IMG/VR virus record: IMGVR_UViG_3300027797_000011
DNA: 64,000 nt
Source of the DNA: a virus
Taxonomy: Duplodnaviria; Heunggongvirae; Uroviricota; Caudoviricetes
Reading direction: 5' to 3' (one strand)
A model generated the notes under the pieces. That model saw only the letters and a program-made list of their open reading frames with translations, ran no database searches and was not told where the DNA came from. Shown here piece by piece: positions 27,601 through 64,000 of the stretch (position 1 is its first letter; each line of letters begins with the position of its first letter). A program made the translations under genes and the position numbers.

Positions 27601-28404
27601 TCATATAGAAGACTTAGCTCAGAAGAAACCACATATTTGATTGAGCCGTTGCAGTTAACTGATACTCAGATTGTTGTAGAAAATGGAGATAAATTACCAC
27701 CATTAAGTCCCAATGCTACATCTCCGGGCGTTGTGTTTATTGCAGGCGAGCGCATTGAATATCTACAAAAGGTTGGAAATGTATTGTCCAGAATAACTAG
27801 AGCTACACTAGGGACCGGCGCAAAACCATATTATACAATTGGGTCGTGGGTAATTGATCAAAGTCAAACTCAAAACATGCCAGCTACTGACACCGTTATA
27901 GTTGCAACAACCAGTACAACCGGAAGTACATCATATATATTATCAAATCAGCTAAACTTTGTATTGGGTGCAAATTATCATGATCAGGTAGAAGTTTATT
28001 TTGGCGGCCGACAGCTAGAAAAACCAACTGCTCCGGGTGTTGTTAGATATGCTCATGATTATTCTTTGTCGTATGATTCGGGGCCTGGGGATGTTCCATT
28101 AGCTCCTGGGTTTACTATTACGTCTAGTACAGTAAATACATCAGTTGTATATAGATTAAATCTTCCGTTTACTCCGCCCGCAGGTGTAGAACTTAAGGTA
28201 GTACAAAGAACAGGTAAGTCATGGTACGCTACACAAACTCGTTCGTTACTAAACATAGACGAAAATTCAGTTACAGCATTATTCCTTAACGACAGAAACG
28301 GAATCACTGTTGATCAATTATACTATGGTGGCGATCCGGTATTAAGATTAGATGACAGTACAGCATTAACATTTGACGACGGCCGTCCAATCGACGGATA
28401 TTAA
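15640..28404 (+). CDS. Giant baseplate wedge/adhesion protein (gp7-like position), 4254 aa
   Basis: Uninterrupted ORF coupled to gp6. Contains FG-GAP-like repeats (VSAP, VAGAP, LVGAPG, ISAPG, YVGAP), W..Y..GD.V.Y carbohydrate-binding-like motifs, GSGY repeats and KPYHTQVR near the C-terminal third. Confidence 0.75.
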   Translation: MATSRKSANLLPAFFRTEKNSKFLSSTLDQLISVPKLNRIDAFVGSTDTPTYQTGDLYLSETNALRQTYQLEPALIVKTLDQEIKKAFALDDLLNQITSYGGNSSNLDRLFNPAFYSYDPKIDWDKFVNFRNYYWMPNGPSSITVTGGQKNPIVEYTITDAADGIQFLFGGLVTTEQLVLYRGYTYVFNITSEHNFNIKYSNRVGSDDSVINNITGNGTKDGQIIFTVDWAVPDNLYYTSNDNQLSTGNIIVKEPNLNSTINVSDEIAGKRYYTTSDGIKFINGLKVRFDGIVFPEEYRDAEFIVDGVGSSIQLIKFSNLDTPDNIADLVNSKFDGTNFDDFPFDDFKNIPLVPEYVTINRASTDRNPWSRYNRWFHKDVITLTANYSNAQVVYPENYKARRPIVEFVANIQLFNFGYSALQNIDLIDNTVTNTFDQVEGQIGYYIDGILLEEGFRVIFNTDADSLVRNIIYKVTFSNNADNISVINLVAESDIVENGSSILVRQGNLHAGSSWNHDGTEWIYSQQRTSRNQAPLFDLFDDTGISYANLTAYSTNFLGNKIFGYGIGTSVIDPVLGFPLLYRNTGVEGTFLFKNYFSTESFILTEQPLIKTVQTSKTYIKVNSQLSSIWVKGEPYTIPNVDGVYEVPLNLTNNPMNGSISEFTLTELADHLSSMTDRDPEFTGNNVKDLPNIGKYGTRLISNLNPLSFANHFISDQENSIISAARIVGEHYYQFKFNLLDAMNDIRQDLDPADALDSILLTLNKNKTTTFPYYKSDMLPYGNGAIIRTYKVTDSRNKKYFLPAQYSPSVLSSAGVLVYVNGTQLLHKKEYTFDAYDSNVEILIPLTRGDTIVVKQFNNTDGSFIPPTPTKLGLYPKFEPMLFTDNTFADGSRNVIQGHDGSIILAFGDYKDNILLEFEKRVYNNIKVSYNQDLFDINSVLPGIFRNKEYTYSEIFNPVYRDFLKWKTTYGVETEKNLSFNIDNTKTFNYSSIVLPNGETAPGNWRAIFKLYFDTDRPHTHPWEMLGFSEKPNWWETQYGPAPYTSGNDLLWKDLEEGRIAQGTRAGIDTTYVRPGLSNMLPVDENGNPLDVRNWGIIGLEGSLSFANTGWKFGDSGPAETSWKRSSYWPFAVQIILAVCKPASYAGTLFDTSRMIKNAVSNYVYSEDNLFVSPTRILLPYDISNESLILTAGYSVLVVEAGTIKNSNYHSQLKIELRNSNFNLMNKTGGFVSKDKLEVVIESVDPKSINPGILLPTEDYTIHFNVSNPVKTIAISGVLIQKYQGKFVIRGYDKVDPFFNVLNPIHQRTDANIVVGAKSEDYALWSTNVFYAQGQIVLYQDSFYRVVGNHNSGQSLDATQYRRLPILPNIGGTTVQHASMFESTPTRIVYGTTFETIQEVADVMTGYGKWLETEGFSFTTYSKDIGQLLDWQFTVKEFLFWTTQNWADNGVIVLSPFADRIEYKFTDSTVDDIFSSFYDYSLLKADGYAFPKDSFSISRTDGVCTITSNDTQNGLFFARLRLIQKEHAIILSNTSRFNDIIYDIETGYRQRRIKLIGFKTTEWNGDYLSPGFIYDPAKIQEWLPYADYTAGDIVEYAGNYYSLTRNRSGTEQFDFTFWSKLDSKPQAQLIPNFEYKISQFEDFYSLDIDNFDVSQQQLAQHLIGYSSRLYLDNIFLNPIAQYKFYQGFIREKGTRNALDKLARASVHNLDGKINFNEEWAFRVGTLGAYSSEYELEFPLSESKFVDNTQLIKFVNEKPSLAYDATVYISPSELTMMPLDYSPDLTFYSSANSDSDLIVMPVAGYVRLEDVDFALKTKQDLYSFVPGKTIKIGDTIWIGFDDNGDWGVYRYARVAQAIESAEALVYGESVVFTTDRYHGLKVGDIVAISRFSDTLNGIYKIEAVPRLNEFVVLSSNEIGTTNAPGILFKFVSSRYTSFDDLVTAEYTADIRIGKSIWVDSGDEGKWQVYTKIKNYNARQVKGIVGDSSYFGKRIISKESSDIVIVSAPSYDDGGGAGKIFVYSNISSPQLIISYSINSFNDQYYRNTISPRPAWFGNSMDFDSADGIIVAGAPYASYLKADVDVDTRFVRVTNNTSTFVNEGLVVISLINEETATETNRLILACQNPNDYIEFGYSVFVGSVPNLKTLLVGAPGFNNNTGKVFAYNLAYSRSFDGSIVQINATNTSYNAVTPPVEITNDSRFGESITGSLTASILAISAPGQDGNGVVCVFEFNNITVNYDYVQTISPTDIPSISDNSNFGSSISMSDTGEWLFVSAPDATDKLLQSGKVLVYRNTTGTFILTQIINNPSSSSGLKFGHSLETDETGELLGVTSIGPTNYSGMIFDSGTTTFDSESTNFSEYISDAGTAYTFNRYKDKFVFASELFDAYITDGSAYGTSISVNRSAIYVGAPLYITTSTIKAGQFYAWNAIDTNSNSWSLIREESGLVDTNRIKQIKTIDTFAETVEDYLEIFDPIKGKISQAADQELRYRTVFDPAIYSTGTSTSIVIDSQTYWGNEHVGELWWDLSSVKYQWYEQGESEFRKNNWGAVFPGCTIDICEWISSDSLPDDWAVLADTSTGLAASISGQPKYLSDLAYCVEQVYSSITDTFTNRYYYWVKNTVIVPNRQGRNISAYEVSNLISNPKSAGLKYVAVLSSSSLAVNNVKGSLINDRISLNMQLDNINNKNNKHTEWLLIEEGSAHSLPNALLEKKLIDSLLGRDSLGNTVPDPALSARQKYGIGIRPRQSMFKNRANALRNMVAYVNTVFADNLITDFYNLDNFNDKDEISQVPINQYDKIVQDLEARNALYTGDFIQAELTCLLVNGKIDSVNIVTPGYGYGKIDAYSYDAQGNIISWKGPKVSILDDVNGAEIETVINQYGSIISVLIKNYGNNYSSIPKLYVRPYTVIVQSDSESRNRWTIYSLMDKSWTKIQTQGHDTTLYWDYANWVASEFNQYQTLASIVDQSYQLAELDLDIGDYVKINNNGAGRYLILKKIQTGSSGTYNLDYDIIVSEKGTLKIKDSIWDILNSQFGWDQVSPYDETFFDQIPDVELEKIIYALKNDIFIGNLKVYWNTFFFTAIKYVLTEQKVVDWMFKSSFINVTNNAGELTQRPVYKFQDTTWYEDYLNEIKPYHTQVREYKLGYTVTEPSLTFTTDFDLPVVYNKETGVYSSLTAGDPLLNTYPYKGWFDNYTLFLDSIAISNAGSGYTEIPEIRIISAPIDSGVTTTATAVALIASGKVVGAQITNPGSGYTVNPSIVLVGGGAVTIPAKLSPIMSNKKTRVNKVGLKFDRISRSREILTNTFTDTFTADGIQSEFNLSWLASQDRVNVTLTVDGIFVTPSNYSLTEYTTFANGYNKLFTKLTTSVQYDQGAIVRITYAKSLKIYNAYDRIHDYYFPTAGMPGKTQNDNYAQLMKGMEYPGTTIQTTPFESDFSWDSVPFGSLLWDPASSQTVDLDTIYTGGTITTSTPWVYGQWTPIGDTTYITTSTPWIFSEGTGTWSLVEVQSTSTPWVSGHWSSARSGATGIRPEDINLDGDQFISPTRTYAPEELVPGHVTETLGINIFTRASSGSALILTLQQPAVANQFTIVQLTLALPSSGAIFVSYNNETLIPSRDYVINYINNTVTVYPKADDGSIEIIYMPGIGGTGFLSSNSTTVEGVSIGAVIGDCAYSEVNSIYVTLNGLPIDPDSGGVGQGLYYISSEEHPGVNNRIKITVHGLGTIGKNVIFAAFFTSEPKGFSEIREQIEYTVNANNRIIELRQPPGVLGPASANSIVEVNGVRIVPPNTTYYEITNTGQTRFDISTRRTFPYNSFDMTMLEVYKNGVRVPLNIYYLDQFNNVIIFPVNYFALNDVLAITAVIDYDYIIRGTKLEITNRIPLEADSNTVRIITFTNQDEQYVRTEVYLSNSARLYKLSRAVFNDNYVWMSIGDKTLVSGYDFVILDDGKSIQVDIDIPFIEGEQVIITSLAETSAGRTLSFKVFKDPIGRTSYRRLSSEETTYLIEPLQLTDTQIVVENGDKLPPLSPNATSPGVVFIAGERIEYLQKVGNVLSRITRATLGTGAKPYYTIGSWVIDQSQTQNMPATDTVIVATTSTTGSTSYILSNQLNFVLGANYHDQVEVYFGGRQLEKPTAPGVVRYAHDYSLSYDSGPGDVPLAPGFTITSSTVNTSVVYRLNLPFTPPAGVELKVVQRTGKSWYATQTRSLLNIDENSVTALFLNDRNGITVDQLYYGGDPVLRLDDSTALTFDDGRPIDGY
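26025..26184 (+). repeat. Three imperfect TTSTPW-coding repeats inside the giant wedge gene
   Basis: TATTACCACATC at 26025 and 26085 (60-nt period); a third ACATCAACTCCGTGGG near 26155. Confidence 0.65.
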
Positions 28405-39713: not shown

Positions 39714-40970
39714 TTATTTATAGTGTGCGGTCTGACCGAAGGGCGCAATTATGGTTTCATTTCCGTGGACAATAAACAGGGTTTCTGCATAGTCCTCGTC
39801 ACCCCAACTTCCGCAAGGGTATCCATCTGTAAACATAATAAAGCGTTTTGGCTCAATGCCTTGTTCCTTCATAAAAGTCCAATTGACTTCAAAGTCAGTA
39901 CCCCCACCGCCTTGGCACTCGTATTCCATAATTTCGTCGGCAGTATCGCCGGTAAATTGTTTGTAACCGTAAACTTCTGTATCAAATGTCCACAGGTCCA
40001 ATTTAAAGTCAGTATACTCGTCCATGATACCTTTAACTTCTGATAAGAAGTCCTTAGCCATTTCGTCACTGATAGAACCAGACATGTCAATACAAACACT
40101 TACGTCAATAGTTTCTTCGTTCATCATACCGGGTAGTATTGCACCGCAATGTTGTGACTTACGATTAGGACGTTGGAAACTAAAATTGCTTTTAATGAGA
40201 CTTTGGATGTTCATACGCAACATCTGACGCCAGTCCATCTTAGGTTCTGTAAAATCAGAAATCATACGTGCAACACCTGCTGGTACCCTGCCAGCACCTG
40301 CGGCTTGTGCGGCCGCAACCATTGCTTCTTTAATTTCGTCTCGAATCTTTTTCTTCTCGTCAGCAGTTAAACGTGGTCGGCCCTTGCCATTACCCTTGCC
40401 ATCTTGATCTCCATCTTCATCGCCGTCATCACTATCGTCGAGGTGCTCGTCTAACAGTTCACCTAACTTGCTAATATCAATTTTTTCTGCTTTCTCGTAT
40501 AGCTCTTCGTAGATCTGCTCATAGCTCATGCCACGATATTTGTTGTCTTGAAAGATTTTAATCCAACTAGGCACTTCACCAATACGTTCATCTTTTAAGA
40601 TTTGATTGGTAGCGTAGTCTGCGGCAATGTTTGACAGTTGGGGATCTCGGCTATCTCGACGACCCATGTGGTCAAATACATTGTGTAATACTTCGTGAGC
40701 AAAGCCAAACTCTGCTTCTTTAGGTTTGAGCTTGTCTACAAATTCGTTATTGTAATAAAAATTCCGACCATCTGTTGCCAGGGTAGCACACCACTCGTCG
40801 GCATTCACTAATTTCAAACGGGTTGCAAGATTGCCAAAGAAAGGATGACGTAACAACAGACCCACACGGGCTGTAATTAGTTTGTCAAGAATAAGATTCT
40901 TTTCTCGGTCAGTAAACGTTTTAGTATTTTTTGGTTTACGAATTTTTTCAGTTTTCATTACAGATGTCAT
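39714..40970 (-). CDS. VWA-domain protein with N-terminal zincin-like (HExxH) domain (DUF2201-like)
   Basis: TLATDG...FAHEVLH; MIDAS motifs CIDMSGSI, GGGGTDF and FTDG. Confidence 0.85.
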   Translation of the reverse strand: MTSVMKTEKIRKPKNTKTFTDREKNLILDKLITARVGLLLRHPFFGNLATRLKLVNADEWCATLATDGRNFYYNNEFVDKLKPKEAEFGFAHEVLHNVFDHMGRRDSRDPQLSNIAADYATNQILKDERIGEVPSWIKIFQDNKYRGMSYEQIYEELYEKAEKIDISKLGELLDEHLDDSDDGDEDGDQDGKGNGKGRPRLTADEKKKIRDEIKEAMVAAAQAAGAGRVPAGVARMISDFTEPKMDWRQMLRMNIQSLIKSNFSFQRPNRKSQHCGAILPGMMNEETIDVSVCIDMSGSISDEMAKDFLSEVKGIMDEYTDFKLDLWTFDTEVYGYKQFTGDTADEIMEYECQGGGGTDFEVNWTFMKEQGIEPKRFIMFTDGYPCGSWGDEDYAETLFIVHGNETIIAPFGQTAHYK

Positions 40971-44627: not shown

Positions 44628-45064
44628 TAACTGACCTCTGTTTTTCCATCACCTAGATTATTAACATTAATATATCCAGAACCTCGTCTGTCCATATCAA
44701 CACCTGATTCTTGTCCTACATTCCTACAAAGGTCCTGGAACCACAAATCAACTACTGCCTCTTCGTCGTCACCTTTATAGCCTGCTAATCTTAATTGTAC
44801 TACAAAATGTTCATTCCAGTCAAGTTCAAAAAACCCATTGCGAGGATTTTCCGGATTTACTTTTGTATCTAGTACTCCTACCCACGGCTCACCTTTTTCT
44901 GTAGCAAGATCTTTGGGTGTTAGTTTAGCTTTTCGTGCATCTTCTTTGGCTTGTTTGGCTTCGGCTTCGGCTTCAATTTTTTGTTTAGTTGCTTCGGCTA
45001 CTTCAGCTTCAATTTTATCGATGCCAAATATCTTTTTAATAAACTTATTCATCAAGTTCCCCAC
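44627..45064 (-). CDS. Hypothetical protein (T4-like phage conserved)
   Basis: EPWVGVLDT...NGFFELDWN; coupled between queE and rnh. Confidence 0.7.
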   Translation of the reverse strand: MGNLMNKFIKKIFGIDKIEAEVAEATKQKIEAEAEAKQAKEDARKAKLTPKDLATEKGEPWVGVLDTKVNPENPRNGFFELDWNEHFVVQLRLAGYKGDDEEAVVDLWFQDLCRNVGQESGVDMDRRGSGYINVNNLGDGKTEVS

Positions 45065-45924
45065 TCATTTTTAAATAGTGGCACCTGCAACCTATCACTG
45101 TAACGTAAACCGTTTTTCATAGCTAATATTGCTACATTACGATTATTCATTGCGTAGACACTTTCTACACCGCCCACTGGCATTAGATAAACATGCCCTT
45201 TAAATCCTGCTGTACGATAAGCGGCAATAGCACATTCAGCATCAGCAAAGTCTTGCTCTGTAGCAATAACAAACTTCAAATAAGCTGTACCGTATTGCTC
45301 ATACTCAACTACTCGCTCTGGTTTAATAGCATCGTCCCACGGCTCGCCACTGCAAGGAAGTTTGGCACTTACACTAAATGTAATTTCTCTCTCGTCGCCG
45401 CCAAATGCCCAGTCTGCTAAGAATTCTTTAAATGCAGTAGTAAGACGCATTGTTCCGTTAGTTTCAAACGTAAGTTCTTTCAAACCTTTCATCTTAGGAT
45501 GTCTTAACAAATCTGGATATTGTTTTTGCCAACCTAGCAATGGTTCGCCGCCAGTAATGACAAGATGTTCATCATGCCATTCTTTGTGTGGCAACATTTC
45601 CATAATGCGTTCTACGATGCCATCAGTTTCGACTAGCGGGCTAAGATCTTTAAAACGAGCATCCCAACTTGCATAACTGTCGCAACCTGTACTTACTAAT
45701 GGAAGTTCATTATAATCTTTAAATTCTAGAATACGCTCTGCAATAGCTTCACGTTCATTAGATAGTTCGCCACGTGGCATACCAAAACCTTGACAGGTAA
45801 AGTTACATCCAAATGTACGCAAGAACACAGACGGTACACCCATGTAACGTCCTTCACCTTGTATACTATAAAATAATTCTGCTATCTTAATTTTACTCAT
45901 ACAATCTTTCCTAATCCTAACCAA
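45052..45924 (-). CDS. queE: 7-carboxy-7-deazaguanine synthase, radical SAM (likely start 45900)
   Basis: ELFYSIQGEG, FLRTFGCNFTC...GCD, ITGGEP, FETNG, SVSAKL. Confidence 0.9.
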   Translation of the reverse strand: MVRIRKDCMSKIKIAELFYSIQGEGRYMGVPSVFLRTFGCNFTCQGFGMPRGELSNEREAIAERILEFKDYNELPLVSTGCDSYASWDARFKDLSPLVETDGIVERIMEMLPHKEWHDEHLVITGGEPLLGWQKQYPDLLRHPKMKGLKELTFETNGTMRLTTAFKEFLADWAFGGDEREITFSVSAKLPCSGEPWDDAIKPERVVEYEQYGTAYLKFVIATEQDFADAECAIAAYRTAGFKGHVYLMPVGGVESVYAMNNRNVAILAMKNGLRYSDRLQVPLFKNEWGT

Positions 45925-46118: not shown

Positions 46119-46389
46119 TTTCGTAAATGGTAGACCATTGTTTTAGTTTTTCAATTTTAGCTTTTTTTGCTACGTCTAATGATACTTGATTAACCACACC
46201 TATGTCAAGTAGAATATCTACCATAGCTAGCAAATCGCCAATTTCTTCTTCTAAGTGTTCACAGTTAGTTTTTGGTTTACCCGGCTTGTAATTGTGTAAC
46301 CCAAATCTATGACACTTACTAACTGCCTGAATTACCTCAGCACATTCTTCGCTAAGGATATTCATTACTTCTCTTTCTTGATTATTCAT
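46111..46389 (-). CDS. MazG-like nucleotide pyrophosphohydrolase
   Basis: EECAEVIQAVSK...LEEEIGDL, the ExxE...ExxD motif. Confidence 0.8.
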   Translation of the reverse strand: MNNQEREVMNILSEECAEVIQAVSKCHRFGLHNYKPGKPKTNCEHLEEEIGDLLAMVDILLDIGVVNQVSLDVAKKAKIEKLKQWSTIYENV

Positions 46390-46895
46390 TTTTTTGCTCT
46401 TTCGGTAAGATATATGTCATTGTGAATCCACTTGTTCTTAACAAGAAATCCCCATTCACGTTTCTGCGGCCCTGGCATAAACAAAGTCCATGCGGTAATA
46501 TTTGGATCTAGTTCAATTCTATGATAACTGTTAGCACCGCAAATCCTAAAATGACCAGGACCTCTCCACTTTGCAATCTCACCAACTTTTTCATCAATTG
46601 AATTAAAAACTGGAACCCATTCCCAATAACCACCTTTGAGGATCAGTGTAGCATAAGGCCAAGGATGATCATGAACATCATCTGGATCTGACTTAAGAAA
46701 CTTGTGTATAAAAGCATTAAAGGGAAAACGCTGTCTGTCTTTTAGGAAGATATAATAACGTTCAAGATATGGTTCATCGTTTATTCTGTCAAAAATAACA
46801 CGCTTTCTACCATTCTTCTCTAACCAAGATAACATCCATTTCATATAGACTCCACTATGCGATACTTTGAAGCAGGATATTGTTCCTGAAGCCAT
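46386..46895 (-). CDS. Cupin-fold hypothetical protein (likely start 46844)
   Basis: HKFLKSD...HDHPW...ILKGGYWE...YHRIEL metal-binding cupin pattern. Confidence 0.7.
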   Translation of the reverse strand: MASGTISCFKVSHSGVYMKWMLSWLEKNGRKRVIFDRINDEPYLERYYIFLKDRQRFPFNAFIHKFLKSDPDDVHDHPWPYATLILKGGYWEWVPVFNSIDEKVGEIAKWRGPGHFRICGANSYHRIELDPNITAWTLFMPGPQKREWGFLVKNKWIHNDIYLTERAKK

Positions 46896-48081: not shown

Positions 48082-48831
48082 TTATCTTGGTGCAAATTCT
48101 TGCTGTAATTTAATGTTATCAAAGAACTCTTTCTTTGTATTGCCATCGGTGTTAAACGCACCTTTAAGTACTGTAGTCTGCGTAAGACTAGAGTGTGCCA
48201 TAATGCCACGATTTTCACAACATCCATGAGTTGCTTGAATATAAACAGCAACATTTTCGCTATCAGTTGCCTTCATAATTTCTCGGGCAATGTCGTTGCA
48301 GAGTTCTTCTTGTAGTGTTCCTCGACGAGCACACCATTGTGCGATACGAGTATATTTAGAAAGACCAATGAGTTTATTAGCGGCAATGATACCGATGTAG
48401 GCAACCCCAGATACAGGCTGGTGATGATGAGAGCACATGGACCGTAGCTCACTGCGAACAACCAACATACCTTCGTACCTATCTTCACTATCATTTGGGA
48501 ATGCCGTTGCGTCTGGTGCTGGATCATATCGACCTCCCATAATTTCGTTGTAGTACATTTTAGCCAGTCGCCTTGCTGTGCCTTTTGAGTTGGGATCGTT
48601 CTCACGATCAATAAGTAATCGATCAAGCACTGTTTCAAATGCTTCTGCGGCTTCGTCAATTAGCTGTTCTTTAACATGCTCATTGTCAATATACTCGCTA
48701 ATATTATCACCTGCCCAGAAACGTTTGCCTTCGCGTTTCATTTTAAAGCGAAGGTAATTGCCTAGATATTTTTCTTCTTTGTAGCCGCCATCACCTGCCA
48801 TAGCGTCTAATCCTGTTTCTTTATTTGTCAA
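48082..48831 (-). CDS. folE: GTP cyclohydrolase I
   Basis: SMCSHHHQP, IGLSKYTRI, RRGTLQEEL, HGCCENRG; TTG start with GGAG RBS. Confidence 0.95.
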   Translation of the reverse strand: MTNKETGLDAMAGDGGYKEEKYLGNYLRFKMKREGKRFWAGDNISEYIDNEHVKEQLIDEAAEAFETVLDRLLIDRENDPNSKGTARRLAKMYYNEIMGGRYDPAPDATAFPNDSEDRYEGMLVVRSELRSMCSHHHQPVSGVAYIGIIAANKLIGLSKYTRIAQWCARRGTLQEELCNDIAREIMKATDSENVAVYIQATHGCCENRGIMAHSSLTQTTVLKGAFNTDGNTKKEFFDNIKLQQEFAPR

Positions 48832-55318: not shown

Positions 55319-57988
55319 TTATTCAAATGTGAATAGCGAACCAAACGTGTTAGTTTGTGTAGTGGACCCCAAGTCCCACTCTAGAACCCCAATAAGATTT
55401 TCGAGTTTGTTATTAATAATAGTGGCTTCCATTTCTGCATGATCAAATGGTAAATCCTGAAACCACTTAGGTAACCGTAATTCATCAACTGGATAAGCAA
55501 TTGATGTATAGCCTAAAGGATTATCCTTAACCTTACATACAATAACTTTCATGCCATCAACAATACCCATTGAGTATTTGTCTCCGTTCATGCGTTTTAG
55601 AGTATTCCAATTAATGCTAGCACGAACGTGTCCGGGCATATTTGCTCTACCTGCCTTGGCTTCCTTAGCTTGATAGTCCGTAATATTGTTAGCACGTTTT
55701 GGACTACCTTTCTCCCAACCGGGTCTAGCTTTGAACTCAGTGCGAAACTCGCTAATGCGTTCTAGAATATCTGTCTCCTGGGCACCGTTAAGTACATCAG
55801 TTAGAATTTCTTCTAAGAACTTCTGCATAAATTCCGGCGTATCGCTACGCTTAAGATCCAAGCCCATGGCCTTGATCTTTCCAGGCTTTCCGTCTATGTC
55901 TTGTCGTTTACCTTCTTTGTCGTAATACAATACAGCATAACGCTTCTTGGTAATAAACAAGCCTTTAACTGCTACAATCTCACGTCCTGCCTTAATAACT
56001 TCACCGCGCGATTTAGGGCAGTGATGTGCATCTAACATAAACTGTGGGAATGTACTGTTTACTTCTTCAGCAACGGTATCATACAATTGAATAATACTGT
56101 CTCTTGTCCAAGGAATTTCTTTTTTATCAATTTCTTTCCTAAGGGTTGCGTATGCCGAGAAATATGCAGAATCAGTATCACCGTAGATGATAGCCTTGCC
56201 AGTATGGTTATACTCGCCTGTGACTACTTCATTTATTTTTGCGGCCATATGGCGGGCAATGCCTCGGCCGGTAAGCGTGGTTGACTGACCAATACGATTA
56301 TCGAAAAACCTACAGCCAGCGTTAAGTATAGCACCGTATAAGCTATTAAGGTTAATCTTTTTAACCAATTGTCTCTTGTCCCAATATTCTTCTTCAATTT
56401 TATTCTCCGCTTTAATTGCATCTTTTAGTTTGGCCTGCATTTCTTTACGTTCAGCATACCAGCGTTTTAGTAGTCCAGGAATAATACCTTCTTTTTCATA
56501 GGTAAAGATAGTACCGTTAGCACTTAGTACCCATGGCTGATTACTTTCAAAAATCATTTCATAGATTTGTGCTCCAGTAAGTACATCAGTATCACCGTTT
56601 TCCCAGTCAACGTGAATTTCGTGAGCTTTGTCTTTATTCATAACAAACTCATATTCATTAGCACCAAACTTACCTTCCCATGCCGCGGCAAAACTATTAC
56701 CTTTAGCAATCTTAGCATCAATTTCTGCTTGAGTGTATGTTTGGCGTAGCTGACCGACAATAGTTTCCGGCCCCATGTTCAATGCACGAATTACAGATGG
56801 ATACAGACTGTTGATGTCCATTGATCCGATCCAATCGTGAAGTCCTTTCTTTGGATAGGCAACATACGCACCTGCGGCCTGATTACTAGCATCCTCATCA
56901 CGCTTTGGTCGACTTGGAACAATCAAACCTCTATGATGTGCTTCATTTACAATAGCCTGTTCAGTTACTGCTACAGCACCCATTGTGGTTTGTAGCAATA
57001 CAGTACATTCATGTGCCAGTGTATTAGCAAGATCAATAAACCTTAATTTCTTATCTAGTTTGTTTAATAATGCAGTATCTTGTCTGTTATATTCGATAAA
57101 CTTCTTAAAGTCATTATTGTACAGTTGATCCAGTGTACCTTCGTATTGTGTCTTAGTTTCGCCTACTTCTAATTCTCCAATCGCATCAAGTCGGTAAGTA
57201 TGGCGTTCTTCGTATGTATACTTGCGGTACAGCTCGAGACTGTCCAGATGAACACGACCAACCAGATCATAAGTAACAGCCGCTTTTCCATACTTCTCAT
57301 ACTCTCTCTTTTTAGGCATTGCATCCCATAGACATAATCTACGAGTATCATCCTTGCTTAACACTTTAATAATACGATTTACAGTATAGGGCATATCAAA
57401 GCCTTCGCTGTTCCACCCACTTAACACATCAGCATCTTCAATCAATGTTAAAAATGTATCTAACATTTCTCCTTCTGTTTCAAACAGAATTGTATTTGGA
57501 AAATCTTTAACCTGTTCCTTCGCCTGTTCCATGGTAAGTGTTTTGGGAGGAATAGCAAGGCATATTAATGTGTCTAACCATTGTAGGTGAACAGCGATAG
57601 CAGTGATTGGCATGAACGCATCATCTGGACTTGCATAGCCTCGTTCTGGATCAAAGTCCACCTCGATGTCCCAAAACGCTACGTTGAGTTTTGGGGCATC
57701 TTTACCTAGATAGTTTTCTTCTAGTGATCTAAAAACTTGATTAATATCGCTTTCGAACAATCGTTGATTGTTGTGGATACGTTGTTCTTTTTGAAATTCT
57801 TTGTGGCTTTTGCATACCACTTTGGACAGGCTTTCGCCGTAAATTGATCTGTACTTACCCTTTTGATCAGGATAATAAAATACATAACGGGCTGGAAATT
57901 CTTGAAATATCCTTCCCTTCTTTGGATCACGCTCTACAACTTTGATAATGTCATTGTCGCGATCCCATATGGCATCTACATAACTCAT
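55319..57988 (-). CDS. gp43: Family B DNA polymerase (T4 gp43-like)
   Basis: Exonuclease motifs WDIEVD, WNSEGFD and YNRQD; polymerase motifs DINSLYPS, KINLNSLYG and YGDTDS; no intein or intron visible. Confidence 0.97.
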   Translation of the reverse strand: MSYVDAIWDRDNDIIKVVERDPKKGRIFQEFPARYVFYYPDQKGKYRSIYGESLSKVVCKSHKEFQKEQRIHNNQRLFESDINQVFRSLEENYLGKDAPKLNVAFWDIEVDFDPERGYASPDDAFMPITAIAVHLQWLDTLICLAIPPKTLTMEQAKEQVKDFPNTILFETEGEMLDTFLTLIEDADVLSGWNSEGFDMPYTVNRIIKVLSKDDTRRLCLWDAMPKKREYEKYGKAAVTYDLVGRVHLDSLELYRKYTYEERHTYRLDAIGELEVGETKTQYEGTLDQLYNNDFKKFIEYNRQDTALLNKLDKKLRFIDLANTLAHECTVLLQTTMGAVAVTEQAIVNEAHHRGLIVPSRPKRDEDASNQAAGAYVAYPKKGLHDWIGSMDINSLYPSVIRALNMGPETIVGQLRQTYTQAEIDAKIAKGNSFAAAWEGKFGANEYEFVMNKDKAHEIHVDWENGDTDVLTGAQIYEMIFESNQPWVLSANGTIFTYEKEGIIPGLLKRWYAERKEMQAKLKDAIKAENKIEEEYWDKRQLVKKINLNSLYGAILNAGCRFFDNRIGQSTTLTGRGIARHMAAKINEVVTGEYNHTGKAIIYGDTDSAYFSAYATLRKEIDKKEIPWTRDSIIQLYDTVAEEVNSTFPQFMLDAHHCPKSRGEVIKAGREIVAVKGLFITKKRYAVLYYDKEGKRQDIDGKPGKIKAMGLDLKRSDTPEFMQKFLEEILTDVLNGAQETDILERISEFRTEFKARPGWEKGSPKRANNITDYQAKEAKAGRANMPGHVRASINWNTLKRMNGDKYSMGIVDGMKVIVCKVKDNPLGYTSIAYPVDELRLPKWFQDLPFDHAEMEATIINNKLENLIGVLEWDLGSTTQTNTFGSLFTFE

Positions 57989-58673: not shown

Positions 58674-59246
58674 TTATTTTATGCCAATTTTCATAAAACG
58701 GAGATAATCAGTATCTGGATCTTCTAGTGTCTTTTTACCTAAGAATAAGGTAGTCGACATAGGGAAGGTTTTATCAAATTCGTTTAGATCTTTAAACGGG
58801 TCTTTAACAGCATCTCTACCTTGTAGTGCAATCAATATACCGCGTGGAATGTTTTTATACCATGCAGTACCTTCTATATCTTTTGTGCTGGTGTTTATTA
58901 TTAAACTATCTGCGGTTGCCTGTTGATAATTTAAAGTGTTGGCATCTTTGTCCATGCTTACTAAATTATCAATACCCGCCGCCCGAAGCATTTTATCAGA
59001 CTTGTCTAGTACATCTTTGTTAGTATCTACATTTATAATTTTATTAAATGGTATGCTGGCATGTTTGAGTGCATAGGCCATATTACCATACCATGAACCT
59101 AGTATATAGATTGTTGAAAATTCTGAAATATCTAAATCTAATCCGACTAGTATTTCACACAACCATTCTTTGCTTTTTATTAAATCAGGAGTGTTGCTGC
59201 CTTCGAATGTCCCAGGGCTAGATTCATTTAGATCATACAACCGCAT
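58674..59246 (-). CDS. Putative Rossmann-fold SAM-dependent methyltransferase-like protein (start MRLYDLNE at 59246)
   Basis: IYILGSWYG motif-I-like, KIINVD acidic strand end, DAN and IINTS; capsid-targeting-like N-terminus. Confidence 0.5.
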   Translation of the reverse strand: MRLYDLNESSPGTFEGSNTPDLIKSKEWLCEILVGLDLDISEFSTIYILGSWYGNMAYALKHASIPFNKIINVDTNKDVLDKSDKMLRAAGIDNLVSMDKDANTLNYQQATADSLIINTSTKDIEGTAWYKNIPRGILIALQGRDAVKDPFKDLNEFDKTFPMSTTLFLGKKTLEDPDTDYLRFMKIGIK

Positions 59247-59250
59247 ATGA

Positions 59251-59499
59251 TTATTTTTTTTGAGAGAACCAAAGTTTAAACCAGGCATCTGTTCCCGGTT
59301 TGATATTTTGCTCGCGCATAATACGAGCTTTTTCTGAGCCGCTATTGTCTGGGTTTACCACAATAGTCGGTTCATGTGTTTTAATTTTTTCTACACTAGT
59401 ATGTTGCCACATTGGATCATCTGCCGGTAAGAAGCAATCGTCTTCTTCTTTTGGTAAGAAGTCTGCCGATGTTAATCTACGTTGTGGCCAGCTACTCAT
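59251..59499 (-). CDS. Hypothetical protein
   Basis: 82 aa; EQNIKPGTDAWFKLWFS. Confidence 0.6.
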   Translation of the reverse strand: MSSWPQRRLTSADFLPKEEDDCFLPADDPMWQHTSVEKIKTHEPTIVVNPDNSGSEKARIMREQNIKPGTDAWFKLWFSQKK

Positions 59500-59987
59500 T
59501 TTTTCATAGCCCGTACATTAGCTTCTAGCAAAGTTTGTAACCGTAATTCGTACCAGCTTTCAGATACTGTTGCGGCCTTTTTATGCTTTGATTTACGTGG
59601 AACAGTTTCGGCTTTCTTTTTATCTTTATGTGCGCCCGCCGCCCCGCCGCCCAATGAGGCCATAGCATGTTTTGCTACAGGATTGATAGGTTTTGGTTTT
59701 TTAGTATGCTTCATAGCCTTAACGCCTTTTTTATTTTCGTTAATCTCTGGATCGTTTCCTTGAGCTTTTTCGCTTTGTATGTAATCCCAAACAGTAACCA
59801 GATAATCTTCAGCTAAAGAAATCTTTTCTTGACACCATTCTGGCAAGTTATCGTTTTCATCGATAGTATTCATTAGCCCATCTACGGCTCTTTTTAGTGT
59901 ATGAAGACTACCTGCAGCCATTCCTGCTTCGTCATCATATTCACCGTTAAATTCTTTTAATGTTTTTTTGTTCATAATATTTCTCAC
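59496..59987 (-). CDS. Probable internal head protein (likely start 59975)
   Basis: MNKKTLKEF start; LPEWCQEKISLAEDYL module; Lys-rich module bounded by INE and VSES. Confidence 0.6.
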   Translation of the reverse strand: MRNIMNKKTLKEFNGEYDDEAGMAAGSLHTLKRAVDGLMNTIDENDNLPEWCQEKISLAEDYLVTVWDYIQSEKAQGNDPEINENKKGVKAMKHTKKPKPINPVAKHAMASLGGGAAGAHKDKKKAETVPRKSKHKKAATVSESWYELRLQTLLEANVRAMKK

Positions 59988-60442
59988 ACTACTATACTAT
60001 CTGGACGACCTTTGCCGGGTCCTTGTGGAACAGCTGATGAGCTAGTTGAACCACCGCTTGCACTTTCTTGAGCACCACCTGCGGCATTTATTCTTGCTTG
60101 TAGTGCATATAACTGACTCTGTAAATCTTTTTGCTTAGACCAAAAACTATGATCATCACTATATTCAAAATTAGGATCAAACTGTGCTCGTAGTTGTTCA
60201 AGTTGTTTTACTAATTGTGGAAGATTTTTTCTATCTTGTTCAACCTGTGCCGCCCTAGCCTGTTGTGCTTTATCCTCACGATCGGTTCGGTCTGCTTGAC
60301 GTTTTAGTTCATCTTGCTTACGTAACTCGTCATGTTCTGGATCTCCGTGAATTCGCAGATTTTTAAACTTTGGATCTGTTTTTTGAAGATTCTTAAAAAA
60401 TGAGGTCATGTCATTTTCTTGTACTAGGTCGTGTATTTTCAT
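59984..60442 (-). CDS. Probable internal head protein
   Basis: MKIHDLVQE capsid-targeting-like N-terminus; coiled-coil body. Confidence 0.6.
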   Translation of the reverse strand: MKIHDLVQENDMTSFFKNLQKTDPKFKNLRIHGDPEHDELRKQDELKRQADRTDREDKAQQARAAQVEQDRKNLPQLVKQLEQLRAQFDPNFEYSDDHSFWSKQKDLQSQLYALQARINAAGGAQESASGGSTSSSAVPQGPGKGRPDSIVV

Positions 60443-60807
60443 TTTTTCATCCAGTTACTTATAGGGCTTACTGTGTGCGTGTCGTCTAACTCTTTGCTTT
60501 TCATATCGCCGTTGTTAACGTCTACAGCACTGGCTCCCACAGCCTTGGCTGCTTGCAAAAACATTTTTTGTTCTATTTCGGAATAAGGTTGAGTTGTTTT
60601 CTTTTTTCCATGCCAGCTTTTTGCATCAATGTCTAATGGTTTATTTGAACCGTCGGCCATTGCCATTGCCTGTCCTAATTTAAATGAAACATAATCACCG
60701 CTTACACGTTCCTCGTCTCCGTAGGTATTAATCCCTCGACTTGGCTGTTGCACTCTTTTAGTAATATGACCTTTTTTCTTTTCAACAATGAATTCTTTAA
60801 AACGCAT
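60439..60807 (-). CDS. Probable internal head protein (start MRFKEFIVE)
   Basis: N-terminus closely resembles the T4 IP capsid-targeting sequences MKTFKEF / MKTYQEFIAE. Confidence 0.65.
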   Translation of the reverse strand: MRFKEFIVEKKKGHITKRVQQPSRGINTYGDEERVSGDYVSFKLGQAMAMADGSNKPLDIDAKSWHGKKKTTQPYSEIEQKMFLQAAKAVGASAVDVNNGDMKSKELDDTHTVSPISNWMKK

Positions 60808-60808
60808 A

Positions 60809-61261
60809 TTATTGTCCTTGTAGGCTAGCACTTAACATCCAGCCGTGTTTACGATGTGCATCCATACGTTCTGCTAAGAAATTACTAAATCCGTGTTCAC
60901 CGTATTTTTCTGCTAGATCATAAACTAATTTTAAAACTTCTATCATGCGTTCGTTATCTTGCAATAATTCTGCAACCATTGCTTCTTTAGGTGGAAGACT
61001 ATTTTCATCTGGAACTGTACTAAGCATACTAAATGCGCTTAGACTTCCGGGAACAAAGGTGCCTAAGCTACGAATTTTTTCAGCAAAGATATCGATGCTT
61101 GCATACACTTCTTCGTATACAGCACCAAACAGTTGATGATATTCTAAAAAGTCACTGCCCACAACATTCCAATGGTAGTTATGCGCCTTTAGATAAAAAC
61201 TAAATTCGCTTGCGAAACCTATCTTAGCAGCCTTACGTAAATCTTCCATTTTTAAATCCAT
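60809..61261 (-). CDS. dps: Dps / ferritin-like DNA protection protein
   Basis: FYLKAHNYHWNVVG..F..YH.LF...YEE...DIFAEKIRSLG ferroxidase motifs; HRKHGWML end. Confidence 0.9.
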   Translation of the reverse strand: MDLKMEDLRKAAKIGFASEFSFYLKAHNYHWNVVGSDFLEYHQLFGAVYEEVYASIDIFAEKIRSLGTFVPGSLSAFSMLSTVPDENSLPPKEAMVAELLQDNERMIEVLKLVYDLAEKYGEHGFSNFLAERMDAHRKHGWMLSASLQGQ

Positions 61262-61269
61262 TTAATATG

Positions 61270-64000
61270 TTATTTATTTTCTAGAAGTCTGATTAAGTCT
61301 GACATCTTGTTCTCAATATCTTCGCTAACTTTGACGCAATTATTAACACGAGTACCACCCTTCATCTTAGTACCTTGCTTGCGATAGCCCTTCCAACACT
61401 TAGGATCTAGACGTTGATCTTCGGATTGTATACTTTCTGCAGAACCAACTAGATCACCTGCTCGAGCATGTTTAGCAGTTGCTTTTAATTGCCCAGCTGT
61501 ACCTAGTTTATTCTTTTTACTTCCTGCAAAGTTACTTGCAGGCATCATTGCTTCTACTTTAGGTTTAATTTCTTTAGTATTGGGTACTTCGTGGTCGCCT
61601 ACTTTTGCTTTCTTGTAGACTTTCTCACCGGTGCTTGGGCTAATGTAGTACTCACCTTTCTTGTCTTGTCCGATGCTTCTTACTTTGTATTTGGCACCGC
61701 TAGAACCTTCCGCCACACCTTGCTTACCCAATAAAGATTGCACCCATGGAATGAATGTGTTGATGATCCAGTCATTGTGCTGTTTGCTTTTGTCCAGTGT
61801 GCTAGAGTCTGCCGCACGACCATTTATTGTCACAGGCTTGATGTTGTTCACAGCATCTGTGATTTTCTTCTGCACAGCTGGATCAGCATCCTTGATCACT
61901 GTTTGTAAGCGGCCGGAGGCTTCTTGCTGCCTGCCTTGCATGGCCAATAAAGCTACTCGTTGTAGGTTAGCATACACAGGATCACCTAGGTTGTTGAACA
62001 TTTTGTTGATACCTGCCGCAGGGTTGTTTTCCGCCACACCCTTTTTAGCAAAGCGAGAATTTTGGAAACTACCTTCAATATACCATTCCATGTCGTCATC
62101 ATTTACTTTACAGTTTAATACTTGAACATTATAGCCTTGATCATCTAACCAGGCCTGTGCTTGTTGGATCATTTGTTGTTTGGGAATATCACCGCTTACA
62201 TCTAAATCGTTGTACCATCCATCACCGACAATATCAGTTAGTTGATCGTCTGTGTACCAGCGTCCTGATTCTCCGCCTCCAGGACCTGGTGCAAATTCTT
62301 TTAGATTGCCTTCCGCCACACCTTTCTTGGGGCGATTTTTTTCTACCCACTGCGCCACTTGTGTTTTTAGTTCTGACGGAACTGTCTCTTCTTTGCTGTT
62401 TACAAAATCTACTACGTCTACACTTCTATTACCCCAAGGGCCGGCTTGCCCTACATACTGAGGAGATACAATACTTTGTGCATTTCGACTTCTTGTGTCA
62501 TTAGGATCAGATCCTTTTGCTAATGTTTTATCAAGTCCTAATGATCTAGCGGTATTGGTAGAAACCCATGACATTGATGTAAAGTTCACCTGGTCATTTG
62601 CTTTGTGTCCGCCGCCAAAAATAGTTTCACTTCCTCGATAATCTGCTTTAATATAATTACCGTCACCCATCTTAAAATAAACAGTACGAGGAGCAAACAT
62701 ATCTAATTCATTTAAGTTGTCTTCCGCTACACCCTGACCCGGTTGAATTTGTCTAGTCTTAACACCAGGCATACCGCCTAATGTTGCTAATTTTTTAATC
62801 CAGCCTTCGGCACTAGTATCCTGGAGAGATATAACCACAGTACCATTAGGATCAATGGAATCTATCCCGGAAAGTTTATCACTGGCATATCCTCTAGGAT
62901 CAAAATAATGCCCAGGTACTGTACCAACTTTATTGGATCGATCTAACCGAGTTTTATATTCGGCATCACCTTTTTGTTTGTGTACTTCTAAACCTTTAGT
63001 AATTGCGGCACGGACCTGTTGTTGTTGAGGAGTTTCTTGGTCTTCATCAGATCTTGTATATACTCGTTGTATCTTTTCTCCACCGTCGCCCCTCTCCGTT
63101 TTTTCAGGCTTGCTAGGTTTGTCTTTTTCAAAATACTTACGCATGTCTGCCGAACTTGTAGTAGATTTCTTTTCAATAGAGTGTTTAGGTGTTGCTAAAA
63201 ATCCCATGATACTTTCATCTTTTGTCTCGTCTGGTTTTTTATTTTTATTAGCAACATCTTGCTTGATCTGATTCATATACTCTTCGCCACGCTTGCGACT
63301 TGCAGTGCTCTTAGCTTGCTCACGTTCCCAAGCACGTTGTAGTTTAACTGCCGCACTCATTCGAGCAGATTCAATTAAACTTTCTGCCATTGGTGCTTTA
63401 ACTCCGCGCTTTTGTAATTCTGCTTGCAATGCTTGTAATTTATTGGGACTACGTGCAATAGCATTACGAATATCTCCTGCTACTTTGCTAGGGAGATTTT
63501 TTAGAATATCGTTTACAATTTGATCTGCTTGAACATTTTGTTTACCAAAAGTATTGTCTTTTGGTGCTTTAGGTTCTTCATATCCATCATCGTCATCTGT
63601 ATCAACTTCTGCTTCAATTTGTGCTAGATAGTTTTCGTAATCTTGCTGACGTTTATTCCAGTTGGCACCAAATGATGATAGTTCTTTATTTCCCATCCTT
63701 GTACCAATTTGTTGTAGTATAGACGGTAGGCTTGAACTAATTTCTCTAAAGTTAATATGTCTTTCTCTATCTTCACTAGCATCTTTTAAGAAGGCCAATA
63801 ACGGAGGCGCATATTTTGAAGCCTGTTTGGTTAGATCATATAGATCTCCCTGCATTTTATTCCAATAGAAATTGTTAAACCACTGTGCGCTTTGACCCGC
63901 GGCGTTGCGATGATACCCTTTTAGACTACCATTGTTATCAACCCAACGCTTGGCCATTGCTTTTAATTTTTCATATAATTGTGCAATTGATTCACCATTA
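61270..64000 (-). CDS. Modular Glu-delimited polyprotein-like protein (probable internal head protein); 5' end lies outside the window
   Basis: The frame stays open from 63957 to the window edge (NGESIAQLYEKLKA-MAK). Unrelated 30-140-aa modules are separated by GVAE(G/D/N), MAES/LIES and SED. Confidence 0.75.
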   Translation of the reverse strand, partial: NGESIAQLYEKLKAMAKRWVDNNGSLKGYHRNAAGQSAQWFNNFYWNKMQGDLYDLTKQASKYAPPLLAFLKDASEDRERHINFREISSSLPSILQQIGTRMGNKELSSFGANWNKRQQDYENYLAQIEAEVDTDDDDGYEEPKAPKDNTFGKQNVQADQIVNDILKNLPSKVAGDIRNAIARSPNKLQALQAELQKRGVKAPMAESLIESARMSAAVKLQRAWEREQAKSTASRKRGEEYMNQIKQDVANKNKKPDETKDESIMGFLATPKHSIEKKSTTSSADMRKYFEKDKPSKPEKTERGDGGEKIQRVYTRSDEDQETPQQQQVRAAITKGLEVHKQKGDAEYKTRLDRSNKVGTVPGHYFDPRGYASDKLSGIDSIDPNGTVVISLQDTSAEGWIKKLATLGGMPGVKTRQIQPGQGVAEDNLNELDMFAPRTVYFKMGDGNYIKADYRGSETIFGGGHKANDQVNFTSMSWVSTNTARSLGLDKTLAKGSDPNDTRSRNAQSIVSPQYVGQAGPWGNRSVDVVDFVNSKEETVPSELKTQVAQWVEKNRPKKGVAEGNLKEFAPGPGGGESGRWYTDDQLTDIVGDGWYNDLDVSGDIPKQQMIQQAQAWLDDQGYNVQVLNCKVNDDDMEWYIEGSFQNSRFAKKGVAENNPAAGINKMFNNLGDPVYANLQRVALLAMQGRQQEASGRLQTVIKDADPAVQKKITDAVNNIKPVTINGRAADSSTLDKSKQHNDWIINTFIPWVQSLLGKQGVAEGSSGAKYKVRSIGQDKKGEYYISPSTGEKVYKKAKVGDHEVPNTKEIKPKVEAMMPASNFAGSKKNKLGTAGQLKATAKHARAGDLVGSAESIQSEDQRLDPKCWKGYRKQGTKMKGGTRVNNCVKVSEDIENKMSDLIRLLENK
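61271..61277 (-). promoter_or_regulatory. Late promoter core ATAAATA upstream of dps
   Basis: Plus-strand tatttat at the end of the upstream gene. Confidence 0.45.
61708..62733 (-). repeat. Four dispersed 12-bp direct repeats GGTGTGGCGGAA (GVAE codons)
   Basis: Exact copies at 61708-61719, 62029-62040 and 62311-62322; a one-mismatch copy GGTGTAGCGGAA at 62722-62733. Spacings of 321, 282 and 411 nt are all in frame. Confidence 0.9.

Follow-up and report, generated by a model that had tools for sequence, protein, structure and literature searches.

An in-frame GVAE joint conserved as DNA and as peptide in a shuffled, candidate head-cargo polyprotein of a jumbo T4-like phage

Introduction

The internal proteins of phage T4 counter host restriction (PMC12373910, PMC9026906): once injected, each of them inhibits a narrow range of host restriction systems (PMC12373910). 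The T4 capsid-targeting sequence (CTS) is MKTYQEFIAE (PMC8442874, PMC9026906), and processing of the leader of one of these proteins, IPIII, is determined by its residues 8 and 10, i.e., P3 and P1 (PMC9026906). Here we describe a long open reading frame (ORF) in a 64,000-nucleotide stretch of DNA from a tailed virus (IMG/VR record IMGVR_UViG_3300027797_000011), which we call the window. The product of this ORF, a polyprotein, is divided into modules by four nearly identical in-frame copies of a 12-mer encoding Gly-Val-Ala-Glu (GVAE). At these joints whole cassettes are gained, lost and replaced, and the joint is also a candidate cutting site of a T4-type prohead protease.

Like T4 IPI, IPII, IPIII and Alt, the predicted cargo units are small, highly variable and non-essential-looking, and their genes lie apart from the head gene cluster. 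Where T4 has MKTYQEFIAE, leaders that follow the pattern M-K/R-x-x-E/Q-F/I-I/L-x-E occur here; the presumed cut again follows Glu, with a hydrophobic residue at P3, and a Peptidase_S77 protease is encoded in the phage group. However, T4 devotes one gene to each protein, whereas here many cargo units share a frame, separated by internal sites whose DNA sequence is itself fixed. Moreover, no cassette resembles a T4 internal protein in sequence, and cleavage and packaging are here predicted.

Shuffling mediated by PeSL elements, with mini-circles, is known from T4-type phages (Arbiol 2010, PMC2839356). PeSL cassettes, and the repeats of the internal-protein locus (PMC2839356; Repoila 1994 as cited there), resemble our locus in that short DNA elements flank variable units; the elements are sites of insertion, deletion and replacement between related T4-type phages, and the phages' own homologous recombination has been proposed as the agent. 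A PeSL, however, is an intergenic element of ~100 bp with an early promoter and a stem-loop, whereas the joint, ~16 nucleotides (nt) long and devoid of promoter and hairpin, is part of a coding frame and is translated. In gp38 of T-even phages, recombination occurs within short conserved motifs (PMC3157838, citing Tetart 1998). As with the glycine-rich motifs of that adhesin, short in-frame motifs at our locus separate hypervariable coding segments that appear to be swapped by recombination; but in gp38 the motifs build the core of one domain, whose loops are the segments, whereas the units here are whole independent domains and the joint resembles a protease site.

Polyvalent proteins (Iyer et al. 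2017, PMC5512222) are long chains in which many unrelated domains have been shuffled, and their packaging and delivery into the host have been predicted. The window ORF, too, holds several unrelated domains in one phage polypeptide, and the domains that accompany one of its cassettes elsewhere (lysozyme, SLT and ParB_N) are typical of polyvalent proteins. For polyvalent proteins, however, neither a common linker nor a DNA-level joint nor regular protease sites have been described (PMC5512222), and where processing has been proposed it is ascribed to a metallopeptidase domain within the protein, which our ORF lacks. Integron arrays, finally, share with the locus exchangeable units, a repeated delimiting site and a content that varies between close relatives. 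However, integron units are separate promoterless genes, whereas the present units are translated in frame as one protein, and the window yielded no integrase and no attC-type structured site.

Results

Organization of the polyprotein ORF

The polyprotein ORF lies on the minus strand (61270..63999). Its 5' end is beyond the window, so that 909 amino acids (aa) are visible; the orthologue in the related locus L001 has 1776 aa. No Pfam domain was found in either protein, and matches of the window polyprotein to PHROGs are confined to the C-terminal ~50 aa and to families of unknown function.

The 12-mer GGTGTGGCGGAA occurs on the minus strand in three exact copies (61708-61719, 62029-62040 and 62311-62322). 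A fourth copy at 62722-62733, GGTGTAGCGGAA, differs by a synonymous GTA for GTG. All four are in frame as GVAE (aa 423-426, 560-563, 654-657 and 761-764), and these are the only GVAE peptides among the 47 long ORFs of the window. Chance would give a mean of 0.10 matches to the 12-mer, and four were reached in 0/100 dinucleotide-preserving shuffles. In the window GTG makes up 10% of Val codons and GCG 8% of Ala codons, so that the exact 12-mer would be expected at 0.25% of GVAE sites.

The modules between the joints, which we call M1, M2 and M3, measure 137, 94 and 107 aa, and show no detectable similarity to one another or to Pfam or PHROGs families. Thus, both the four in-frame copies (three exact, one with a mismatch) and the three non-homologous modules that a first-pass annotation of the sequence had described are confirmed.

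The visible part of the polyprotein reads M0a-M0b-[GVAE]-M1-[GVAE]-M2-[GVAE]-M3-[GVAE]-M4. M0a (aa 1-321; 63037..63999, minus strand, as for all parts of the ORF) is a conserved upstream part, 96.6% identical to L001 at the nt level and also present in loci L155, L023, L044 and L015. The cassette M0b (aa 322-426, ETPQQQQVRAA...; 62722..63036) has no left joint in the window, but in L082 and L109 it is bounded by GVAE on both sides; its start coincides with the left breakpoint of the difference between the window and L001 (nt 63026). Joint 1, between M0b and M1 (62722..62733; GGT GTA GCG GAA, aa 423-426), is the variant copy, and its orthologous site reads DVSE in L155 and AVAE in L001.

M1 (62311..62721) is present in L155 and absent from L001. 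It is followed by joint 2 (62311..62322, an exact 12-mer at aa 560-563), then by M2 (62029..62310), joint 3 (62029..62040, exact, aa 654-657), M3 (61708..62028) and joint 4 (61708..61719, exact, aa 761-764), which precedes M4. Both M2 and M3 are absent from L001 and L155, and M3 has no relatives in the loci examined.

M4 (145 aa; 61273..61707) is a composite of cassettes that occur separately elsewhere. Behind a GSSGAKYKV part of ~50 aa comes a decayed joint, KVEA (~61549-61560; RVAE in L155), then a possible relic joint, GSAE, at ~61435-61446, and the last part is the RLDPKCW...NNCV cassette. Altogether, the visible polyprotein comprises at least six cassettes with independent distributions. 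No further near-identical relative of the window gene was found in the metagenome collection, where matches to M4 reach at most 78%.

Cassette exchange at the joints

The comparisons that follow were made throughout with metagenome assemblies. The window and L001 are 96.6% identical at the nt level from 64000 to 63026 and 86% identical from 61726 to 55280. Between these flanks the window has 1.3 kb (M0b, M1, M2 and M3) where L001 has an unrelated 0.63 kb, giving the layout M0a-M0b'-[AVAE]-Y-[GVAE]-M4. The left breakpoint falls in the first codons of M0b and the right one 7 nt before joint 4, where DNA homology to L001 resumes at 61726.

L155 differs in another way. Its orthologue (68% aa identity) is laid out as M0a-M0b-[DVSE]-M1-[GVAE]-M4 with insertions; M1 runs straight into M4 over one perfect joint, which means that L155 is without M2 and M3. 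Inside M4, L155 has extra cassettes bounded by RVAE and KVAE. That orthologous loci would differ by whole modules, with breaks at the 12-mer, was what the first-pass annotation had predicted; the opposite outcome, a fixed module order with synonymous variation in the GVAE codons, fails for L001 and L155 as regards module content, although some synonymous drift (GTA) does occur.

The pattern extends well beyond these two loci. Among 140 joint-bearing ORFs, 46-50% of internal ends of DNA homology fall on a joint, vs 7% for random positions; a conserved DNA element, the joint, thus stands at breakpoints between related genomes. Cassettes bounded on both sides number 200, with a median of 78 aa, and fall into 132 families. 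M2 provides the best example: 78-98% identical copies are found in >270 proteins with differing partners, the similarity stops at the joints, and the neighbors belong to at least six different families on the left and at least five on the right.

M2-bearing proteins (P0049, P0076, P0099, P0120 and others) also contain lysozyme, SLT, LysM, PG_binding_1 and ParB_N domains, and further partners are cytidylyltransferase-like, SutA RNAP-binding, GP88, DUF6321 and DUF5661 domains. Domains of the conflict type that marks polyvalent proteins (MPTase, ParB-like, ART, lysozyme and others) are found only in such M2-sharing proteins, with none in the window ORF or in its L001 orthologue.

These observations attest to the gain, loss and replacement of cassettes at the joints. 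The mechanism is probably homology-driven. Dyad symmetry is lacking in the joint, its copies are direct repeats without exception and none is inverted, no family of site-specific recombinases or integrases was matched among the ~45 window ORFs scanned, and general recombination genes of T4 type (a gp46/47-like pair) are present in the window.

Junctions without a joint also occur. In two IMG/VR contigs of 262 and 345 kb (L007 and L008; ORFs at +5298 and +4807), M2 is fused as ...MYGQQG|NLKEF, with no VAE, and the same two cassettes are joined by GVAE or GMAE in other contigs.

By megablast and tblastn we found no cultured phage with the joint. In tblastn, cultured phages gave single cassette families only, in T4-like cyanophages (ACG-2014d, S-WAM2, S-H9-1), where they are fused without GVAE. 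In Synechococcus phage S-WAM2 (locus L144; KU686211.1, 146611-147755), two adjacent hypothetical proteins share cassette families (EYDYEGDMA...NLPEW and CWKGY...KKVDDCV) and have no GVAE joints; one of them starts with MKTFKQLRE, which is leader-like.

Codon conservation of the joint

Taken across contigs, the joint spans ~16 nt with the consensus A-GGT-GTG-GCG-GAA-GGC, and the linker peptide is K-[KEQ]-[QK]-G-V-A-E-G-S. A protein-based scan of IMG/VR gave 17 loci related to the ORF, and a scan with a 15-nt pattern gave at least 120 loci with the motif. The contigs that carry it have a GC content of 0.34-0.46, and the motif is in frame in long ORFs, at 2-6 copies per ORF. Two near-complete relatives (345 and 338 kb) have four copies of it each, on one strand and within a single locus of ~6 kb, and a control pattern (the motif reversed) gave 0 copies; this is the genome-wide count that the first-pass annotation had called for.

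To a large extent the codons of the joint are frozen, and the same unusual set recurs at hundreds of sites. In loci found by protein similarity only, the exact 12-mer is present at 29 of 41 distinct GVAE sites, and GGTGTGGCGGAR is matched by 34 of the 41. At sites that the DNA search pattern could not have selected, the figure is 85 of 119. The exact 12-mer therefore accounts for ~71% of independently found GVAE sites, vs 0.4% predicted from the codon usage of the same ORFs (0.25% from that of the window), in line with the first-pass argument that repeated GTG-GCG is unlikely to result from protein selection alone. GTG and GCG are, in fact, the rarest Val and Ala codons in these phages.

The codons beside the joint are biased as well (before it, CAA 102 vs CAG 2; after it, GGC 98 vs GGT 24). 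In alignments of 35-85% identity, codons at identical residues are the same in 76-83% of cases at the joint vs 51% in the flanks. Some synonymous and non-synonymous drift is nevertheless seen (joint 1 has GTA in the window, and its orthologous sites encode DVSE and AVAE), so that the freeze is strong rather than absolute. The median tract of identity between unrelated joints is 16 nt long, and tracts of at least 21 nt make up only 2.7%, which makes chimeric assembly unlikely as an explanation.

Protease-site signature

In-frame near-matches to the 12-mer encode GMAE, SVAE, DVAE, NVAE, GVTE, GVSE and GVEE. Base by base, variation is lowest at the T of the codon for Val and at the GA of that for Glu. 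In different contigs, the joint before the M4 cassette reads KMAE, GLAE, DVAE, GATE or GVAE. From these variant sets it follows that Glu at P1 is essentially invariant and that P3 is V, M or L, rarely A, while P4 and P2 are free. This pattern (V/M at P3, E at P1) fits the cutting site of a gp21-type prohead protease, which we take the joint probably to be on the strength of its sequence.

The relatives G001 and G003, both near-complete and motif-bearing, encode Peptidase_S77 and Gp23 proteins that score above the curated cut-offs. The G001 capsid protein has phi-x-E sites (phi being a hydrophobic residue), ILE|N and LKE|N, near residues 31-42, the start region of mature T4 gp23; this placement by alignment is imprecise, but compatible with the protease rule.

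An AlphaFold model of M2, of moderate quality (pLDDT 64.7), shows a small alpha/beta fold in which the first 14 and last 8 residues are disordered. Foldseek searches with this model against the PDB and BFVD returned no match at E <= 0.001, and M1 had no usable Atlas match.

T4-like leaders

M2-containing proteins often start with MKINQVLVE, MKASEFISE, MNIKDIITE, MRANEFIVE or MKTTDFLTE. In protein P0002, MRAIEFLAE|GSLNEF..., M2 stands directly behind such a leader. Considering ORFs from their first ATG, leaders of this kind (e.g., MRAHEFIAE, MRAKEFISE) were found in 51 of 1020 ORFs from 66 loci with the system, vs 2 of 523 ORFs from control loci; several of the leader-bearing ORFs are themselves polyproteins with 2-5 joints. 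The codons of the leaders are AT-rich and vary synonymously (ATT GCT GAA, ATT GCA GAA). Hence, a phi-x-E site needs no GC-rich codons of itself, and the freeze is specific to internal joints.

Two to four window genes near the polyprotein gene, all on the minus strand, bear a leader. Shortly downstream, a small gene at 60439..60807 has the T4-CTS-like leader MRFKEFIVE (ATG at 60807), and another at 59984..60442 has the CTS-like leader MKIHDLVQE. In a third small gene (59496..59987), a leader ending in ...KTLKE is followed by the domain FNGEYDDEAGMA..., which is a cassette between G[VM]AE joints in >15 other proteins. The methyltransferase-like gene at 58674..59246 is a weaker case, an internal ATG giving the leader-like MRLYDLNE.

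Far from this locus, a 334-aa ORF at 19-1023 (minus strand), with no PHROG match, has the capsid-targeting-like start MRLDNILSE. The N-terminal part of the 1776-aa orthologue (L001:1144-2300, plus strand, outside the window) matches phrog_19290 and contains a G-S ... D-I-D pattern that, by inspection, is reminiscent of nucleotidyltransferase folds.

Genomic context

A family B DNA polymerase (PolB) and homologues of T4-type genes show the 64-kb window to be part of a jumbo T4-like myophage. PolB (55319-57988) is ~51% identical to that of Sinorhizobium phage Phosso, ~47% to that of Agrobacterium phage Atu_ph07 and 44% to those of Rak2-like coliphages. The other homologues are the late sigma factor gp55, gp46/47, gp5/gp6, baseplate hub and wedge proteins, tail fibers and thymidylate synthase. 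A megablast search of 50,697 deposited phage genomes (INPHARED) gave no near DNA match to the window. Head genes are absent from the 64 kb, as is a gp21-type protease. The window has no tRNA genes either, which bears on the idea of dedicated decoding of GTG and GCG.

A gene for a Dps/ferritin-like DNA-binding protein, without an obvious leader, lies at 60809-61261 (minus strand), between the polyprotein gene and the leader-bearing small genes. Elsewhere in the window, genes for a QueE-like radical SAM enzyme and a GTP cyclohydrolase adjoin a cysteine-dioxygenase-like gene (45052-45924, 48082-48831 and 46386-46895, all on the minus strand); this group suggests that the phage modifies its DNA by a 7-deazaguanine pathway of queuosine or archaeosine type. 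A single ORF of 4254 aa (15640-28404, plus strand), between baseplate wedge and tail-fiber genes, matches the virion structural family phrog_10938 and has the lowest GC content of the window (0.32-0.34). Finally, an HNH endonuclease gene (phrog_1314) is found at 39714-40970 (minus strand), and a small gene at 1492-1929 (minus strand) matches both NAD-synthetase-named and homing-endonuclease PHROGs.

Discussion

On balance we lean toward reading the polyprotein as a shuffled precursor of head-internal cargo in a jumbo T4-like phage, with the joint serving as both cut site and recombination handle. The polyprotein would then correspond to the T4 internal proteins, but with many cassettes in one frame. 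After uptake of the precursor into the prohead, a gp21-type protease would cut it at V-x-E, and the separate small proteins would leave with the DNA. At the DNA level, the identical tract of ~16 nt would act as a homology patch at which the T4-type recombination machinery inserts, deletes or swaps cassettes in frame, through exchange between joints and between co-infecting phages. Cassettes would also move between arrays and free-standing genes, and in the latter a capsid-targeting leader ending in phi-x-E would replace the joint.

The double role of the 12-mer, as protease site and as recombination site, had been put forward in the first-pass annotation. Exchange at the joints is an observation, and the conservation of P3 (V/M) and P1 (E), together with the gp21-type protease of relatives, speaks for the protease half; both a homology mechanism and cutting are what we infer from these data.

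Several points weigh against this reading. A tract of 16 nt is short for homologous recombination, and selection on random recombinants would also give breakpoints at linkers. Cleavage and packaging of the polyprotein are predicted from sequence. The gene sits among replication genes (PolB, the Dps-like protein), away from head genes. The late promoter TATAAATA was not found upstream of the polyprotein gene in L001; it has only two copies in the whole window, and the result is uninformative. The start of the window ORF lies beyond the window, and that of the L001 orthologue, MILNELFRPKKTIPLFE, is only loosely leader-like.

The nucleotide freeze itself raises a further difficulty. The variants of joint 1 had prompted the idea that perfect joints are those recently swapped and that static joints decay. 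As a general rule this idea was rejected: the exact 12-mer is as frequent at static joints (85%, in diverged pairs) as at joints where homology breaks (85%; Fisher p = 1), so that the recency of exchange does not explain the freeze. Continuing direct selection on the joint nucleotides, or their homogenization, is required.

Among the alternatives, the one that survives best, although we judge it unlikely, is that the joint goes uncut and connects, as a flexible linker, the many domains of a large polyvalent protein, which acts as a single chain, packaged or not, and in which DNA identity serves or merely reflects domain shuffling. The many unrelated small domains would suit such a protein, as would the lysozyme, SLT and ParB_N domains of other M2-bearing proteins (PMC5512222); some packaged polyvalent proteins, e.g., the N4 virion RNA polymerase, stay unprocessed (PMC5512222); and junctions without a joint exist (QQG|NLKEF in L007 and L008, and the M0a/M0b boundary in the window). 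However, no passive linker would retain exactly a hydrophobic P3 and a P1 Glu with P4 and P2 free to vary. In addition, the same cassettes are found after T4-CTS-like leaders whose terminal phi-x-E takes the corresponding place, and the relatives carry a gp21-type protease.

Less probable still is that the frozen nucleotides have a function at the RNA or DNA level other than homology, such as a translational pause where a domain ends, a regulator site or a target for a nuclease that triggers repair-driven exchange. The persistence of the freeze at static joints of diverged genes would indeed fit direct purifying selection on the sequence, the Val and Ala codons concerned are the rarest in these phages, and HNH and homing-endonuclease-like genes are present in the window. 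Recombination alone, however, explains why the DNA signal sits exactly, and in frame, at cassette boundaries. The joint has no inverted copies and no dyad symmetry, and no candidate binding partner was identified. A Shine-Dalgarno-like pause is not supported either, since the duplex energy of the joint with the 3' end of 16S rRNA is unexceptional (-7.2 to -9.2 kcal/mol, where random 24-mers have their 5th percentile at -8.9; with AT-rich synonymous codons the joint gives -6.5 kcal/mol).

Very unlikely, in our estimate, is a true integron-like system, in which a dedicated site-specific recombinase would excise and insert cassettes as circles at the joint. The joints are direct repeats that flank cassettes, cassette content differs between close relatives, and the PeSL mini-circles show that circular intermediates can form in T4-type phages (PMC2839356). 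But neither an integrase nor a recombinase family was matched by the scanned window ORFs, the joint differs from attC or attI in its asymmetry and its length of ~16 nt, and the gp46/47-like general recombination genes would suffice. The integron-like array of the first-pass annotation, taken strictly, thus finds no recombinase in the window and no symmetric or inverted site, and the term holds by analogy only.

Chance, codon bias, recent internal duplication or an assembly artefact can be set aside as effectively refuted: duplication can yield direct repeats and the comparison loci are metagenome assemblies, but the shuffles never reached four copies, the modules that flank the joints are unrelated to each other, the motif recurs in >100 contigs of many samples with diverged flanks, and the shared tracts are too short for k-mer chimeras.

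Each part of the proposed scheme is known already: internal proteins targeted by a CTS, cleavage after Glu of the gp21 type and, in T4-type phages, recombination at short motifs. As far as we can tell, what is new is their combination, an in-frame array of cargo cassettes with one joint conserved both as peptide and as DNA; in the literature searched, on GVAE in phages, prohead proteases and polyvalent proteins, we found no publication that describes the joint.

A bolder proposal, which we offer tentatively and as rather doubtful, goes beyond the precursor reading. The joint may be an actively used and selected in-frame recombination site, comparable within coding DNA to an att site or to the boundary of an exon, with the same sequence read as the protease site that releases the proteins. 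Arrays of head-delivered anti-host proteins would then be re-assorted at high frequency in giant freshwater phages, and the joint would be an evolvability device under simultaneous selection at the DNA and protein levels.

If the GVAE arrays carry the same kind of cargo as the T4 internal proteins, uncultured giant lake phages would hold hundreds of unexplored cassette families (132 in our small sample), and the cassettes would be candidate anti-defense or host-takeover proteins, each delimited by a recognizable joint. The joint would be among the few short sequences on which selection acts twice, on the DNA as an exchange handle and on the peptide as a cutting site, and the arrays would constitute a natural in-frame domain-shuffling system in a virus. 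In practical terms, they would also offer a design rule by which several foreign proteins could be loaded into T4-type heads from one gene.

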